Origin: Pseudobdellovibrionaceae bacterium
GTDB taxonomy: Bacteria; Bdellovibrionota; Bdellovibrionia; Bdellovibrionales; Bdellovibrionaceae
Assembly: GCA_039810425.1 (NCBI GenBank)
Contig: JBDHWW010000021.1
Span: forward strand, 1-60,064
Length of the DNA: 60,064 nt
Direction: 5' to 3'
Of this stretch, positions 12,900 to 20,741 are shown piece by piece (the first letter of the stretch is position 1; every line of letters starts with the position of its first letter). A program made the translations under genes and the position numbers. The notes below the pieces were generated by a model. That model was not told the DNA's origin. It did no database searches and saw only the letters and a list, made by a program, of their open reading frames with translations.

Positions 12900-12922
12900 A
12901 ATTGAGGCCAAGGGGGCCAACT

Positions 12923-13483
12923 ATGTTCGTTGCAGTTTTTGCCGGAATCGTCGTTCTCGTCATTCTACTAATGGGCGTGTCCGTCTACAACGGACTTATC
13001 AGCCAAAAGAACCAAATAGACCGTGCATGGGCAAATATCGAAGTTATTCTCAAGCAACGCTTTGACGAAATCCCGCAGCTTATCGAGGTGATCGAGCAGT
13101 ATGCATCGTACGAGCAAAGTACATTGAAAAAAGTTATCGAGGCGCGGAATCACTATTCGACGGCAAACTCCATTGATTCTAAAATCGCCGCGTCGAATGA
13201 AATATCGATGGCACTCAAAGGCGTGGTCGCCTTAGGTGAGGCCTACCCGGAACTGAAAGCCAATCAGTCTTTTGTCCAATTGCAAGGCCGCGTGTCTGAA
13301 CTCGAAGGCCTGATCGCAGATCGGCGTGAGTTCTTCAATGAAACAGTGACAAATTTTAACACGCGTATTGCGCAGATTCCGGATATGTTCTTTGCAGGCT
13401 TGCTCGGCTATTCCGAAAAGCCGATGTATCACCCCCCGGCGGCTGAAACAACTCGGCCTTCACTTAAAATGAACATCGGGTAA
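12923..13483 (+). CDS. lemA: LemA family protein
   Basis: N-terminal TM, YNGLI, AWANIEVILKQRFDEIPQL, EAYPELKANQSF, RREFFNE. Confidence 0.93.
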   Translation: MFVAVFAGIVVLVILLMGVSVYNGLISQKNQIDRAWANIEVILKQRFDEIPQLIEVIEQYASYEQSTLKKVIEARNHYSTANSIDSKIAASNEISMALKGVVALGEAYPELKANQSFVQLQGRVSELEGLIADRREFFNETVTNFNTRIAQIPDMFFAGLLGYSEKPMYHPPAAETTRPSLKMNIG

Positions 13484-13486
13484 CCC

Positions 13487-14434
13487 ATGGACTTCATCGA
13501 AGCGACGCGAAATCAACAAGAAGTTTTTAAAGTCGCGCTGACCCTGATGCTCCTTGGGGGCGGAAGTGTCGTATTTGGCTTTAAGAAATTTCTATCGAAG
13601 CGGAAAATAGAAGAGACGGCTCGCAGTAAAATCTCCTCAGCCGCGCAAGGACTGGTCGAAGTCGAAGGCCAGGCGTGGCCGACGATTGCGCGTAAATGCC
13701 TGGATGGACGACCTGTTTGTTTTTGGGGTATTCGGGTGCAAGAGTACCGGCGAAGCGGTAAGAGTTCGTCATGGCACACGGTCTATAGTTATTCGACCTC
13801 TGACGAGGTTCTTGTACTCGATGAAAGCGGGGCGTGTCTGGTGTGTCCGCAGCAAGCGCAACTCGAGATTACCGAGCGAACGATTCCTCGAAGCAAGATG
13901 TCGTCCGTCCAAATGGAGTTTCTTGTGGCGGCGGCTCCGATGACGGCACGCTATTTTAGTGGGGGCGCCGGTTTCTGGAACTCATTCACCGGCGGCAATA
14001 TTCGTGTGGTCGAAACAAAGCTTTTAGCTGGCGGTCCGGTCTATGTGCGCGGCGATTTTCGCACCAATATCGATCAAACCCACGCGGTGGCGGTCGGAGA
14101 TATTACTTCGTATTCGGGGCAGCTCAAGAAAATGGGCTCAACAGCGTATCAACGGGTGATGTTTGATGCCAATCGTGACAATAAACTTTCAGAAGATGAG
14201 TTGATCAACGGCTATTCAGCTGCGGCCAATGCGTTCCTACGCGTTGGTGGGGTTCAGTCGGTGAAAATCAGTGGCAAGATCACGGCTGACTCCGAGCATG
14301 GGCTTATTTTGGCCGACATCTATCAGGGTTATTTGGTGAAGCGCGCCGCCTTTGTTTCGATGGCGGGGGTTTGGGGCGGCCTGGCGCTTGTCGGAGTGGG
14401 GTTGTTTATTTTCTTTAAGCAGATCGGTCTCTAG
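13487..14434 (+). CDS. GIDE-domain membrane protein with an EF-hand loop (LemA partner)
   Basis: SKISSAAQGLVEVEG, LDESGACLV, DANRDNKLSEDE loop, N- and C-terminal TMs. Confidence 0.75.
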   Translation: MDFIEATRNQQEVFKVALTLMLLGGGSVVFGFKKFLSKRKIEETARSKISSAAQGLVEVEGQAWPTIARKCLDGRPVCFWGIRVQEYRRSGKSSSWHTVYSYSTSDEVLVLDESGACLVCPQQAQLEITERTIPRSKMSSVQMEFLVAAAPMTARYFSGGAGFWNSFTGGNIRVVETKLLAGGPVYVRGDFRTNIDQTHAVAVGDITSYSGQLKKMGSTAYQRVMFDANRDNKLSEDELINGYSAAANAFLRVGGVQSVKISGKITADSEHGLILADIYQGYLVKRAAFVSMAGVWGGLALVGVGLFIFFKQIGL

Positions 14435-15286: not shown

Positions 15287-16348
15287 ATGTACGTCCATGA
15301 TTTGAATCCATTTGCTATACAGTTTTCCGAAAATTTCGGCATTCGTTGGTATGGATTGTCATACATGCTCGGGTTCATCTGCGCGTACTTACTGATTCGC
15401 TGGTTGACGTACCGTCAGCGCGCGGGTTTGAGTCCGAGCATGGTCGGTGATTTTATTACCTACGTTGCGATCGGCACTCTGGTTGGGGGTCGCTTAGGCT
15501 ATGTGCTTTTCTATGCGCCGGATTTATTTTTGAAATTCAAAGGTGATTTCCCGTTCTGGGGAGTCTTGGCGGTGAACGAAGGCGGTATGGCAAGTCACGG
15601 AGGTATGATCGGGATCGTGATTGCCTGTATTCTATTTGCGCGCCGCTATGGCGTGAACTTCCTTTATTTGCTGGATCTTGTCTCGGTGTCGGGACCTATC
15701 GGCGTGTTCTTTGGCCGTATCGCCAACTTTATCAATGGGGAACTCGTGGGCCGGCCGGCTCCTGAGGGGTATCCTCTGGCAGTGAAGTTTCCCCAGGATA
15801 TTTTGAATTGGCCAAGCACGGACTTTGGTAAGTTGAAAACTCTCAGCGATGTGACCGAGAAAGTGAACGTGACTCCGGATCAGTGGATGGGGTTGCTTGA
15901 GAAATTCCAACTCGATACTTTGTCAAAGGCTCAAGTTTACGAAACTTTGCAGAAAATCGTGCTTGAAGTGCAAAAGGGCAATAGCGGTGTGAAAGACGCT
16001 TTAGCGCCATTGCTGACAGCTCGTTATCCGTCGCAACTATTCGCGGCCGCGGGGGAAGGGTTGCTCATATTTTTGGTGCTGTTCTTTCTCTGGCGAAAAG
16101 GCCGCAAGCCGGGGTTTATCGCTGCATCTTTCATTATATTGTATGCATTGGTCAGAATTAGTGATGAGTCCTTCCGCATGCCAGATATCCAGATTGGTTA
16201 TCAGTGGCTGGGGCTCACGCGCGGGCAATGGCTGAGTATCGGCATGTTTGGCATCGGTGTGAGCATGATGTTCTTGTGGATGAGATCGAACTCGCTTAAT
16301 ATTCCAGGTTGGCGCCAAGGGCACAGCATCCGTTTAGGCCGCAAATAG
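15287..16348 (+). CDS. lgt: Prolipoprotein diacylglyceryl transferase
   Basis: IRWYGLSY, GGRLGYVLFY, GGMASHGG, GRIANFINGELVGR, RYPSQL, TRGQWLS; long periplasmic insertion. Confidence 0.96.
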   Translation: MYVHDLNPFAIQFSENFGIRWYGLSYMLGFICAYLLIRWLTYRQRAGLSPSMVGDFITYVAIGTLVGGRLGYVLFYAPDLFLKFKGDFPFWGVLAVNEGGMASHGGMIGIVIACILFARRYGVNFLYLLDLVSVSGPIGVFFGRIANFINGELVGRPAPEGYPLAVKFPQDILNWPSTDFGKLKTLSDVTEKVNVTPDQWMGLLEKFQLDTLSKAQVYETLQKIVLEVQKGNSGVKDALAPLLTARYPSQLFAAAGEGLLIFLVLFFLWRKGRKPGFIAASFIILYALVRISDESFRMPDIQIGYQWLGLTRGQWLSIGMFGIGVSMMFLWMRSNSLNIPGWRQGHSIRLGRK

Positions 16349-16441: not shown

Positions 16442-16557
16442 ATGATCACAAATATATGTATAATCTTATTATGATAATTATTAGACATAATATATCTTAT
16501 TGTATTAACTCAATAATTTATTAAAATATAAATTACTATGATCACAATATTGATCAT
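16442..16557. promoter_or_regulatory. Very AT-rich regulatory tract with a repeated/palindromic operator
   Basis: ATGATCACAA at 16442 and 16538; perfect ATGATCA-N6-TGATCAT at 16538-16557. Confidence 0.55.
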
Positions 16558-16642
16558 TTATGAGTTTTGTGAGATCCTTTTTGTGTAGCCAAATCAAAAG
16601 ATGGGTCGAAGGTTTTTTCAGATTTGCACAAAGGATGGTTTT

Positions 16643-17665
16643 ATGAGCTCGAAATCTGTGAATATGACGTCAGTCATGGGTCTTTTAGTAGCCACGTTGG
16701 TTCTCGGTGCTTGCGGAAAAAAAGCCGATGAAAGTGGCGTTTCTGCTTCGGCAGATGAGTCTGCGTCAGGCGCAGCGGCCAGTGCCGTGGGGGGAGCTTT
16801 GAGTGGTACCAGTTCCAGTGGTTCTCTGGCGATTTACAAAATGCGCGAGCAAGATCCTGTACATGGTTTCTGGATGACGATGGCAAAAGTGATGGAACCT
16901 CAGCCAGCAATGGCGTCAAGTCTTTGCCCTACTTTTGCAACGACAGGGGCTGGGTGTGCAGCGAGCGGCGGCAGTATGTGGTTAACTTATAGTGGTTGTA
17001 CTTTCCAAGGTTATGCAAGTTGGACGGGTGTTCAGAAGATCACCAAATCTTCGGGCGCGGCGGTCTGTGGAAGTTTTCCGTCCGCACCGGCGAGTGGCAC
17101 TCTCTATAGACAATTTGTTTCCACGTCGGGCTCTAATACTCCAGGGTCTGTAAGTTTGGTCGCTGATAACTGGTCAGGTGTCATTGACAACTCTTCGAGC
17201 AACTTGAGCAATTTCGATGGTCAGGGTATCGGGACAATTCAGAACGGTGGCTATGGTGCGGCTGTCAGTTTTAATGCGAGCGGAGTAAGAACAGGTGTGA
17301 CTCTGGCTCATCGAGTGTACGTCACCGGAGTGTTTGATCACTCGGTCTCTGGCAATCTTGCTATTACTGAAGGCAATGGAGCTTCGTCACGGACGATCAG
17401 CGGTCAAGTGACTGTTTACCACAACCGCGCACGTGTGGTCGGCACCTCGACTTTCTCAAATGTTGTGCATGAAGATGTTTGCTGTCTTCCTGTTTCCGGT
17501 ACGATTACGACGACTTTCGCGGCTGGTAGCAACGTAAGTCCAACCGCGCTGGGCAGTCTGTTGGTGGGTAAAACAGAATCATTAACATTCACGGGCTGCG
17601 GAACCGCGACTTACACCTCTTCCAGCGGTGTGGCTTCCGACGTGACTCTGCATCGTTGTTTCTAA
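16643..17665 (+). CDS. Ser/Gly/Thr/Cys-rich lipoprotein (paralog 1)
   Basis: Lipobox LGAC; aligns by eye with 18532..19497; start at 16643 chosen from the AAGGA SD. Confidence 0.85.
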   Translation: MSSKSVNMTSVMGLLVATLVLGACGKKADESGVSASADESASGAAASAVGGALSGTSSSGSLAIYKMREQDPVHGFWMTMAKVMEPQPAMASSLCPTFATTGAGCAASGGSMWLTYSGCTFQGYASWTGVQKITKSSGAAVCGSFPSAPASGTLYRQFVSTSGSNTPGSVSLVADNWSGVIDNSSSNLSNFDGQGIGTIQNGGYGAAVSFNASGVRTGVTLAHRVYVTGVFDHSVSGNLAITEGNGASSRTISGQVTVYHNRARVVGTSTFSNVVHEDVCCLPVSGTITTTFAAGSNVSPTALGSLLVGKTESLTFTGCGTATYTSSSGVASDVTLHRCF

Positions 17666-17689
17666 GGGTAGAACTTGGGGGGAGTGAAC

Positions 17690-18535
17690 GTGAAAACGCA
17701 ACGACCAGATATTTTCTCATACCACGATCATCTGGCATTTTTGAAAGAGTGGGTGGCTTATCTCAAAGCCACCCAGTCGCGTTTTTCGTTGCGTGCGCTG
17801 GCCAAGGTCTCGGGTCTGGCGTCGGGTTATTTGCCGATGGTTTTAGGTGGCACGCGTCCTTTGTCCGCAGCTGCACTTGCGAAGATGATTCCACATTTAG
17901 GTCTGAGCGCCAATGAGCAGTCTTTCCTGGATTGTTTGCTGATCCTGGGAACATCGGAATCCCACGATGCTCGTATCATGGCGTTGGAGCGTATGAAAAA
18001 GTTCGGCCAGTTCCGTACGCATAACGAGCGGGAGACTGCTGCGTATCATTACCTGACACATTGGTACTACGTCGCGATCCGCGAAATGGCGGCGAGAACT
18101 GGTTTTAAAGACGATCCGGAGTGGGTGCAAGAGCAGTTGCGTTTTCAGGTTTCGCTCAAAGAGGTCAAAGAGGCCCTCGAGTTTTTATTCAAATACAAAT
18201 ACATTGAGAAAGGTAAAAACGGTAAGATCCTGGCTCCGACAGAGACCTTGAATTGCCAAGGTGGTATCTATCGCGTGGGGCTGTCGCACTTTCATCGGGA
18301 AATCATGCGGCTGGCCGGCGAAGCCATTGACAAAGTTCCGCGTGAGGAACGCAATATTATGGGACACACGTGTTCTTTGAGTGAAAAGAATTTTCTAAAA
18401 GCCCGTACCATTGCCGAAGAGGCGATTCAAAAAATTCAGGAGTTGACGGTGGCGGAGCAAGACGGAGAAGCGGTTTATCATATGGAAGTGGCTTTGTTTC
18501 CGCTTACACATAAGCAAAATGGGAGTAAGTCATGA
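17690..18535 (+). CDS. TIGR02147-family protein (N-terminal HTH + DUF4423)
   Basis: IFSYHDHLAFL, FSLRALAK.SGLASGYL.MVL.G.R, HWYYVAIREM, VPREERNI, VYHMEVALFPLT. Confidence 0.85.
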   Translation: MKTQRPDIFSYHDHLAFLKEWVAYLKATQSRFSLRALAKVSGLASGYLPMVLGGTRPLSAAALAKMIPHLGLSANEQSFLDCLLILGTSESHDARIMALERMKKFGQFRTHNERETAAYHYLTHWYYVAIREMAARTGFKDDPEWVQEQLRFQVSLKEVKEALEFLFKYKYIEKGKNGKILAPTETLNCQGGIYRVGLSHFHREIMRLAGEAIDKVPREERNIMGHTCSLSEKNFLKARTIAEEAIQKIQELTVAEQDGEAVYHMEVALFPLTHKQNGSKS

Positions 18536-19497
18536 GAGTCTTGATTTTCGCTGGTTTGTTGGTTTTGGTGGCATGTACCCAATCAGGGTCGGGTGGCACG
18601 ACGACGGGAAATCCACTGGTGGAAGACACGTCCGCATCGGGGGCGGTTGCGGGTGCAATCGGTGGCGCCTTGAGTGGTTCGGCGGCTGGTGGAGCTAGTG
18701 AAATGAAATTGACGGGTGCTGCGGATCTTTCTGCCATGGGTGGAGTCTGTCCAACGTTTGCCACAGCGGGAGCCGATTGTGCGGCCAGTGGTGGAACGAT
18801 GTGGTTGTCTTACAATTCCTGCAAATTTCCCGGTTCGACAGCAAGTTTCACGGGGGTGCAAGCTTTGGTGATGTCTTCGGGAGCCGCAGCTTGTGGCACT
18901 TTTCCCCATCCGGGAGTGAACTCCACGTTGAGGCGTCAGTACGTGACATCATCGGGTTCCACGACCCCTTCTTCGTTGGTTCGTCAGAGCGCGGCGGGCA
19001 CTTATCTCGCCATTGATAATCATACCGTGAATCTTTCGAATTTTGATTCAGCGGTGCTTGCGACGATTGTGAACGGTGGTTATGGCGTGTCCGTCAGCTT
19101 TAACAGTTTAGGTGCGCGTGATCAGATTACTTTTGGTCATCGCGTGAATGTGATGGGGGACTTTGATCAAACGGTGTATGGCACTTTGAATGTCTCAGAA
19201 GGCTCTTCGAACTCGGCGTCGCGTTCGGTTTCGGGTTCCGTGACGGTCTATCATAATGGTTTACAAGTGATCGGTACTTCCACGGTGAGCAGTCTTGTTC
19301 ACAACAATACATGCTGTTTGCCAGTGTCGGGCACGATCACCACCGTTTTTTCTGGGGGGGCGAATGTCAGCCCAACGGCTTTGGGAAGCTTGTATGTCGG
19401 TAAATCCGAGAGCCTTGCGTTCACAGGTTGTGGCACTGGACTGCTGACGAAATACGACGGGAGTGTTGTGCGCGTGTCCTTGAATCGTTGCTTCTAG
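18532..19497 (+). CDS. Ser/Gly/Thr/Cys-rich lipoprotein (paralog 2)
   Basis: Lipobox LVAC followed by [12 protein letters not shown] overlap with the TIGR02147 gene. Confidence 0.85.
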
Positions 19498-20741
19498 TGT
19501 TTGACTTTCTGGATCAACTCGTCGACGGAGAGGTTTTCCTGCAAACCTGATTTCAGATTTTTGACGGCAATGTGGCGGGCGTTGATTTCATTTTCGCCCA
19601 TCACAAGCGCATGGGTTGCGCCCATTTTGTCAGCTTTTTGGAAGCGCTTACCCATTTTGCCGGAAATAATCATTTCGCATCTCAAACCGTGTGAACGAAG
19701 TTTGTGCGCCACTTTCAAAGCTTCGCCCTCGCCGGCTTCATCTGCAGGAATGATCGCGAGCAACGGTTCGTGCTTCTGATATTTCTCGGCAGGAACCAGT
19801 TCGGCAAGGCGGTCCATACCCGCAGCCCAACCAACACCTGGAGTTTTTGGGCCTCCCATCATTTCAATCAGCGGATCGTAACGACCCCCCGCAAGCACGG
19901 TGCCCTGGGCGCCGAGCTCCTCGGTGACGAACTCAAAAACGGAATGGCAATAGTAATCCAGTCCGCGCACTAATTTTTGATTAATTTCATAGGGAATACC
20001 CAGGGCGCGAATCGCTTTGAGTAAGGCTTCAAAGAATTTCTTCGATGCATCATTCAGGTGATCATGCAAGGACGGGGCGTTTGCAATAATCGCGCGGTCG
20101 CCTTCGTCTTTGGAGTCGAGAATGCGCAGGGGGTTTTTCTCGAGGCGGACTTTGCTGTCGGCAGAAAGCTTTTCTTTGTGCTGATTGAGGTAGGCAACGA
20201 GGATGTCGCGGTAATTGGCGCGGCTTTCAGCATCGCCAAGAGTGTTGATCTCGAGATGACATTTGCCTGCGATGCCGATTTGATTTAGCAGATCCCACGC
20301 CATGCCGATGCACTCAGCATCCGCCAGCGGCGAGTCGACGCCAAGATATTCGACGCCGACTTGTTTGAACTGGCGATAACGGCCTTTTTGTGGACGCTCG
20401 TAGCGAAACATGGGGCCAGAGTAATAGAATTTTAAAGGCAGGTTTTGCGCCATACCTTCAGAAATAAAAGCACGTGCAATACCGGCAGTGCCTTCGGGGC
20501 GCAAGGTAATGCTTTCGCCGCCGCGGTCTGCGAAGGTGTAGGTTTCTTTGCTGACCACATCCGATGTTTCGCCGAGTACGCGATGAAAAACTTCAGAAAA
20601 CTCAAAGACCGGCGTTTCAATTTCGCCGTAGCCGTACAGCATAGAAAGCCTATGGGCCGTGGATTCGACAAAACGGAATTTAACATTATCTTCTGGCAAC
20701 AAATCGCGAGTCCCGCGGACTCTCTGGAATTTCGTACTCAT
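19494..20741 (-). CDS. hisS: Histidine--tRNA ligase
   Basis: [39 protein letters not shown]. Confidence 0.98.

Follow-up and report, generated by a model that had tools for sequence, protein, structure and literature searches.

The window analysed here, a 60,064-nucleotide stretch (positions 1 to 60,064, forward strand) of contig JBDHWW010000021.1 from a Pseudobdellovibrionaceae bacterium (GCA_039810425.1), contains a three-gene cassette in which a regulator of the TIGR02147/DUF4423 family is flanked by two paralogous cysteine-rich lipoproteins, an upstream one (A) and a downstream one (B), with a short motif (the tag) behind the lipid-bearing cysteine of B only. Our preferred reading, which we hold tentatively and somewhat short of probable, is that the cassette is an autoregulated operon in which the regulator reads both an operator in front of A and the tag of B, B being a sentinel whose freed tag would lift repression and A being the output. 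What appears to be new is the asymmetry between the twins, which recurs across unrelated lipoprotein families, together with covariation signals for the operator and for the tag.

The three open reading frames lie, all on the plus strand, where the first-pass annotation had placed them (Table 1), and A and B are indeed near-colinear paralogues (56% identity over 252 amino acids (aa), E 2e-85), with every motif quoted for the pair at matching positions. GTTTGNP, which had been assigned to the downstream copy alone, is found in B only (residues 22-28). The middle gene scores 166.7 bits against TIGR02147 (cut-off 50), as had been proposed, and 105 bits against DUF4423 (cut-off 30), the curated cut-offs being passed over the full model. 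The regulator stop and the B start overlap in an ATGA (18532-18535), which bears out the suggested translational coupling. The A stop lies 24 bp before the GTG start of the regulator, and no terminator-like site was found on scanning this gap, so that the three genes likely form one operon. A single RNA run yielded one exact contig of 197 bp within B, which gives no usable measure of expression.

The survey of TIGR02147 neighbourhoods suggested with the annotation reveals that the arrangement is not unique to this locus. We kept 214 distinct regulators from a metagenome scan (56 loci), a genome scan (78 loci) and genome searches from which the higher-scoring matches were fetched, and counted the layout in the 175 with at least 800 bp upstream and at least 500 bp downstream. 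An upstream paralogue of the downstream gene is present in 79 of these 175 loci (78 of 144 in the near clade, 1 of 31 among distant regulators), a count from which BLAST will miss divergent twins. In all 82 such sandwiches both twins are on the regulator strand, with a twin identity of 26-61%, and the tag pattern [TSAVGI]GN[PGY] is found in 77 of the 82 downstream twins and in none of the 78 upstream twins with a recognisable lipid Cys. Sandwich partners fall into four clusters (73, 7, 1 and 1 loci), the large one being DUF4382-like and unrelated to the A/B family (hhalign probability 0.1%). The partner gene starts within -20 to +30 bp of the regulator stop in 182 of 200 loci, with overlapping codons in 99. 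Five partners from two separate lineages consist of an export signal and a tag only (57 aa in loci L122, L259 and L266; 85-86 aa in L084 and L090), suggesting that what the downstream gene cannot do without is the tag and not a folded domain. The 57-aa partners are preceded by a conserved, unrelated gene of approximately 365 aa. Some cassettes have two TIGR02147 genes close together (L115/L181, L119/L238 and L136/L214).

Tag and regulator were compared by a co-change test on 162 regulator-tag pairs, in which branches where a tag position and a regulator column both change were set against a branch-specific expectation; 19 flanking partner positions, giving 5130 control pairs, served as controls. 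The top five pairs, tag position -1 with L122 (z 6.5), Pro with I213 (4.8), Asn with P271 (4.4), -1 with G225 (4.4) and -2 with H226 (4.3), score above every control pair (highest z 3.8). The signal also remains when the near clade is taken by itself and when the tree is built with those residues left out. The register of the pairs (-2:226, -1:225, +1:223) is antiparallel, a likeness to the PatS6 peptide on HetR, where, in excerpts of PMC4649674, PatS6 adds a strand to the alpha-beta-alpha-beta hood and releases DNA. Given this co-change, the C-terminal module of the regulator probably binds the tag directly, as HetR binds PatS.

GTTTGNP makes up 28 and GTSTGNP 27 of the 162 tags, and tags are nearly alike across many loci. 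Among the cassettes of one genome (G165) tags differ. Every one of the four codons for Gly, for Thr and for Pro is used at each such position of 71 TGNP tags; because synonymous codons vary this freely, a DNA or RNA element was rejected as an explanation of the tag. The distance from the Cys is mostly 5-27 residues and usually 5-11. A ribosome-arrest peptide was also rejected, given that at 5-11 residues past the Cys, and for the known length of the exit tunnel, the signal peptide would still be inside the tunnel. The best TIGR02147 match in this genome (C46:7290-8596, L050, 257 bits) is coupled to a 156-aa lipoprotein of an unrelated kind that contains GTNTGNP, and cross-talk between this pair and the studied cassette is possible. 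Four other TIGR02147 genes of the genome (C91:4329-5606, C11:8936-10132, C5:59951-60973 and C99:146-1183) are followed, with overlap or nearly so, by secreted non-lipoproteins that start, past the signal peptide, with the related Gly-rich motifs VVGNGGN, FVGNGGN, FVNNGGG and GQEGGGG, likely a second class of tag.

On the DNA side, the word TGATCACA occurs in 24 of 54 promoter regions upstream of A, compared to 0.4 expected from shuffles. The pair at 16443 and 16539 is the only one 92-99 bp apart among 133 sites in the genome; a pair 93-98 bp apart precedes A in 40 of 77 cassettes, in both main families, and in 0 of 18 regulator-less homologues. In 29 of the 40 paired sites the proximal site has a second half, [GT]TGA, forming a TCAC-N4-GTGA palindrome. 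The fourth base of the operator tracks residue 49 of the regulator, with Pro going with GATCAC and Ser with GTTCAC in 37 of 38 cases, the best of all alignment columns, a count that set aside 18 loci without a scored site. Among 60 loci fetched later (44 new regulators, 22 sandwiches) the rule held in 16 of 16, and Asn and Thr at residue 49 also go with GTTCAC. Overall, residue and site agree in 53 of 54, each changing 8 times on the tree with no pair in the opposite direction, and the co-change statistic, applied to the operator, ranks P49 first. This covariation makes it very probable that the HTH (helix-turn-helix) domain of the regulator reads the operator.

The putative promoter, noted by eye, has the same spacing in L031 and L051 and falls below the threshold of a consensus scan. 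Two in-phase operators, one of them on the promoter, suggest a repression loop. A word like CCGA(TAA) lies approximately 30 bp past the proximal site in 14 of the 40 paired promoters (L187, L205, L129-L131 and kin) and resembles a sigma-28 -10 box. In a rough window around L168 and L169, the 95-bp site pair is reversed and faces a divergent lipoprotein gene that is no twin, implying that outputs other than a paralogue are possible.

Structure prediction, also raised in the first-pass annotation, placed the regulator domains among known folds and gave no clear fold match for the lipoprotein. The regulator model (predicted local distance difference test, pLDDT, 93) comprises an Xre-type HTH at approximately 12-96, an ArsR-like winged helix at 113-187 and a C-terminal helix-strand-helix-strand (extended) module at 192-272, in which helices 192-215 and 232-255 alternate with extended segments that form no strands in the monomer model. 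Residues 12-96 match Xre folds; for residues 114-272 the best match is 4g6q (Z 8.5, root-mean-square deviation (rmsd) 5.4, 152 aligned). In the ESM Atlas the C-terminal part finds one weak unnamed HTH cluster (0.80).

B is modelled (pLDDT 89) as a long, curved beta-sheet plus an N-terminal helix (35-48), and in front of these lies a low-confidence tether ending in the tag. Its best Foldseek match has an E of 0.017, and the ESM Atlas has unnamed clusters only (0.93-0.95). Outer-membrane beta-barrels and autotransporters give a best Z of 10.2 (rmsd 4.7, 193 aligned, 4% identity) with no gap to the lower-ranked matches, which we consider a generic likeness of curved sheets. Library scans returned no Pfam, NCBIfam or PADLOC family for A or B, no Pfam match for 30 distant relatives, and no PADLOC (known anti-phage defence) family for any of the three cassette proteins. 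Among candidates of 680-2000 aa no fused longer forms were seen, a weak negative. The signal peptide of both lipoproteins ends in a lipobox Cys that does not vary among 113 aligned homologues, and both are predicted to be lipidated; each has eight further, matched Cys. The all-beta, disulfide-rich fold without a catalytic family match leads us to guess that A binds or sequesters something at the surface.

Relatives of A and B number 118 by word search and 466 clusters at 50% identity by profile search, with a family match in 75 of 401 genomes sampled across the phylum. Nineteen loci fetched from other genomes comprise 2 full cassettes and 17 loci with 18 solo copies, which have no regulator, no tag and no operator pair. 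Nine regulators have an A/B-family gene downstream, in 7 sandwiches and in 2 loci ended by the contig end. Of the 113 aligned homologues 43 are tagged, and 39 of these lie on one branch of a quick, domain-only tree made without the tag region (Shimodaira-Hasegawa-like approximate likelihood ratio test (SH-aLRT) 91); the tagged state changes 5 times on the domain tree versus 34.9 times when shuffled. To judge by this tree, the tagged copies are a long-lived lineage and the A/B split is old. Distant solo homologues in L041-L043 and L048 are close to a MotA/TolQ/ExbB-ExbD-like cluster, as seen by eye.

Between anchor and domain, many lipoproteins of both families, solo copies included, have an amphipathic segment followed by PxAxA, a feature for which no literature description turned up. 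It precedes the domain in 33 of 56 upstream twins and 12 of 58 downstream twins, against a background of 73 of 2057. The stretch in A resembles an internal signal-peptidase-I site, and such a site may release A, as a shed lipoprotein, instead of signalling.

Codon use separates the twins as well. The share of C-ending Phe, Tyr, Asn and Ile codons, a bias that marks high expression, is higher in A than in B in 41 of 56 pairs (0.50 versus 0.34 at the studied locus), with no matching shift in G+C. A is also the first gene of the operon, and B relies on translational coupling. From codon use and gene order, it is fairly probable that A is made in excess of B.

Under the preferred reading, the TIGR02147 protein would bind the two operators 96 bp apart via its N-terminal HTH, and its C-terminal module would take up the GTTTGNP of B as an extra strand. 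B, present at a low level, would serve as the sentinel, and A, its tagless counterpart, would be the abundant product; being a twin of A, B would let the cell monitor exactly what A meets. A cue handled by A would hit the shared domain of B at the envelope, B would be cut and its tag freed and imported, and tag binding would lift the looped repressor from the site overlapping the -35 box. This step, from the cue on B to the lifted repressor, we regard as possible, with slightly more doubt than the reading as a whole, and a repressor is preferred to an activator by a small degree only. The regulator would control the whole operon, its own gene included, and not A alone. The interaction of regulator and tag, operator binding and the effect on expression are predictions from sequence. 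Much of the signalling cassette that the first-pass annotation had envisaged, with a co-expressed sensor lipoprotein and a cytoplasmic HTH protein controlling an abundant effector paralogue, is retained: the layout has been conserved and is found again with unrelated families of lipoprotein, the tag is limited to the downstream twin, an operator matching the regulator lies before A, codon use favours A, and tag and regulator co-change. A pure "sensor domain" reading is disfavoured, since five loci have partners made of an export signal and a tag alone.

Several observations weigh against the preferred reading. Relative to the lipid Cys the tag is on the exported side, and the neighbourhoods examined show no conserved protease or importer gene beside the cassette, so that the return of the tag to the cytoplasm is the weak step of the reading. 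Near-identical tags invite cross-talk if freed tags diffuse, and the signal-plus-tag partners imply that a sensing domain is not needed everywhere. Strict PxAxA is commoner in untagged twins and absent from the B studied here, contrary to a cleavage of B at this site. The 95-bp operator pair is missing from 37 of 77 cassettes; counting well-supported branches only, the residue-49 rule comes down to 4 independent pairs (sign test p 0.125), versus 8 when all branches are used, and the z for P49 is only 3.6 on a reduced tree. Kin are over-represented in all counts. The co-change statistic is our own and its ranking shifts between subsets, some pairs rest on few events (4-5 for I213 and P271), and some of the top ten (K65, S78, R35) are elsewhere on the regulator.

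Two alternatives share both binding steps with the preferred reading. The regulator could bind the tag on the B precursor in the cytoplasm and lose it when B is exported, so that output follows export capacity, in the manner of FlgM or ExsE; the likeness of B to A would then serve to test the very route by which A is exported. Such a monitor needs no import step, has its genes coupled as seen for most partners, accommodates the signal-plus-tag partners and draws on the same covariation. We nevertheless think it unlikely, as a single input would be read by all of the many paralogous cassettes of a genome (11 full-length here, and in G165 11 strong matches), and as the folded domain and cysteines of B have been kept over long times, beyond the needs of an export test. 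Alternatively, B could be a constitutively processed precursor whose shed tag builds up outside the cell or within prey and is then taken back in to report density or life stage, as RRNPP systems do, the domain of B being no sensor. The 57-aa and 85-86-aa partners do look like peptide precursors, and tags differ among the cassettes of G165. In addition, the protein tables of PMC12546842, our source for this point, list six DUF4423 proteins in Bdellovibrio bacteriovorus proteomes, of which Bd3700 (HD100) is up 2.67 log2 at 4 h inside prey. This idea does not account for the conserved twinning of A and B across four partner clusters, and near-identical tags across species would give little identity; we consider it rather improbable.

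Two further explanations take the tag away from signalling. It might be an envelope sorting, modification or assembly signal, with A as the major and B as the minor subunit of a single surface structure, the regulator being an ordinary autoregulator. Its location on the exported side agrees with this, and so does the codon bias, major and minor paralogous subunits being common. However, the tag follows the regulator across 28 partner clusters and is absent from the 18 regulator-less homologues, and its positions co-change with one regulator patch beyond all controls, which makes this explanation quite improbable in our view. That two paralogues share one small inserted cassette could also reflect a recent tandem duplication or gene conversion for surface variation, with no division of labour. 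Tagged and untagged copies, though, are mostly in separate lineages by the domain tree, A and B share one stretch of DNA only (42 bp at 79%), and orthologues of B are approximately 80% identical to it versus 56% for its twin; we give this idea hardly any credence.

By sequence the regulator is a member of TIGR02147 (Fsuc_second)/DUF4423 (PF14394); what the present analysis adds to this family is the twin layout, the operator code and the tag contacts. In the open-access literature TIGR02147 has no description, DUF4423 one table mention, and the twin lipoprotein/regulator system no description. The regulator shares with HetR (and its peptides PatS, HetN and PatX) a DNA-binding domain and a middle domain; a C-terminal alpha-beta-alpha-beta module, a short peptide that adds a strand and changes DNA binding, and autoregulation would be further, predicted likenesses. 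It differs in that its N-terminal domain is of the Xre type and that the peptide, GxTGNP, is polar and neutral compared to RGSGR and forms part of an exported lipoprotein, at its mature N-terminus. No HetR match is present among the 25 families listed of the 92 Pfam families matched by 114 members, nor a HetR chain among 21 PDB sequences (E up to 10); HetR is not listed in the fold searches of the regulator either, which excludes nothing as the monomer model lacks the C-terminal strands.

The likeness to PrgX of Enterococcus, with its peptides cCF10 and iCF10, consists of an HTH regulator, a lipoprotein-precursor peptide and two in-phase operators, one on the promoter; in excerpts of PMC7117660, PrgX forms a loop between operators spaced by 70 bp, of which one lies on the promoter, and a peptide derived from a lipoprotein acts as its switch. 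As in RRNPP systems, an exported peptide precursor is encoded beside the regulator. By contrast, the regulator lacks the C-terminal tetratricopeptide repeats (TPR) of that group (its model is a winged helix with two long helices, and TPR_12 matches 2 of 114 members, E 0.06), the host is diderm, the peptide is past the lipid Cys and not in the signal peptide, and the precursor is a twin of the regulated product. SigV-RsiV of Bacillus offers a possible logic, in which the envelope protein that meets the cue also reports it, and has an amphipathic segment and an AxA site; signal peptidase cuts RsiV once lysozyme has bound, the cleavage site being one that amphipathic helices guard (PMC6066255). 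Here, the unit has no extracytoplasmic function (ECF) sigma factor and no transmembrane anti-sigma factor of the RsiV or FecR kind, and the putative AxA-like site is commoner in the untagged twin. Kfla_6221 (PDB 4g6q), the best fold match of residues 114-272, is itself without an assigned function, and neither it nor the ArsR-like winged-helix proteins nor the Xre and controller proteins (C.AhdI, SinR), the folds matched by residues 12-96, joins both HTH types with a tagged partner. The regulator is not a member of the RRNPP, ECF or (by sequence) HetR groups but likely works like HetR or PrgX.

The first-pass annotation had the cassette inserted between lgt and hisS, and these two genes abut tail to tail in 4 of 6 other genomes of the genus; one of the six has the same cassette there and one has no hisS beside lgt. 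Other cassettes of the A/B family have other neighbours. With the cassette being an insertion, the flanking genes are incidental, and a functional link to either was rejected, as lgt and hisS adjoin without the cassette and other cassettes are elsewhere. The stop codons of B (plus strand) and hisS (minus strand) overlap in four bases (19494-19497), with no room for a terminator. Further upstream (12902-14434), a LemA gene (Pfam, 148 bits) is followed by a 315-aa membrane protein with a weak EF-hand-like match.

Table 1. Features of the lipoprotein-regulator cassette and its flanks, in window coordinates.
Feature	Position	Strand	Remarks
lgt	15287..16348	+	left flank, outside the unit
Distal operator half-site TGATCACAA	16443..16451	+	96 bp upstream of the proximal site
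AT-rich spacer (14% G+C), approximately nine helical turns	16452..16538	.	would allow looping or wrapping
Proximal operator TGATCACAATATTGATCA (GATCAC-N4-TTGATC quasi-palindrome)	16539..16556	+	conservation of paired sites
Putative weak sigma70-type promoter	16550..16578	+	-35 TTGATC (second half of the proximal operator), 17 bp, TG-n-GATCCT; by eye
Lipoprotein A, untagged twin, first gene	16643..17665	+	340 aa from ATG 16643; lipobox VLGA-C24
PQPAMA stretch of A, after the amphipathic segment and before the folded domain	16898..16915	+	putative; resembles an internal signal-peptidase-I site; linker of low confidence in the B model
TIGR02147/DUF4423 regulator	17690..18535	+	281 aa, GTG start
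Pro49, HTH recognition helix	17834..17836	+	Pro with GATCAC, Ser with GTTCAC operators
L122, I213 and P271, with residues 221-228 in the candidate tag patch	18053, 18326, 18500	+	co-change
Residues 221-228 (RNIMGHTC), candidate tag-pairing strand	18350..18373	+	co-change; coil in the monomer model
Lipoprotein B, tagged twin, coupled to the regulator	18532..19497	+	321 aa; lipobox VLVA-C15
Tag G-T-T-T-G-N-P, 7 residues after the lipid Cys of B	18595..18615	+	end of the low-confidence tether
hisS	19494..20741	-	right flank, outside the unit; stop overlaps the B stop

TIGR02147/DUF4423 regulators are heavily expanded in Bdellovibrio-like predators and in Fibrobacter, and from the studied locus the family gains a candidate DNA site whose recognition code turns on one residue, a candidate peptide ligand together with the patch predicted to bind it, and a candidate target gene. 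A and B define a new lipoprotein family (466 clusters) without a known fold. More speculatively, and with less confidence than we place in the mechanism for this locus, such cassettes may represent a receptor-less form of trans-envelope signalling that is widespread in diderms, in which a seven-residue tag on the mature N-terminus of any exported protein is read directly by a cytoplasmic transcription factor; duplicating a protein into an untagged output and a tagged sentinel would then make a custom circuit, one that would have arisen in at least two, and up to four, unrelated lipoprotein families. If the tag does signal from the envelope, this would be peptide-controlled regulation in Gram-negative bacteria, and would provide a portable tag-regulator pair for synthetic biology.

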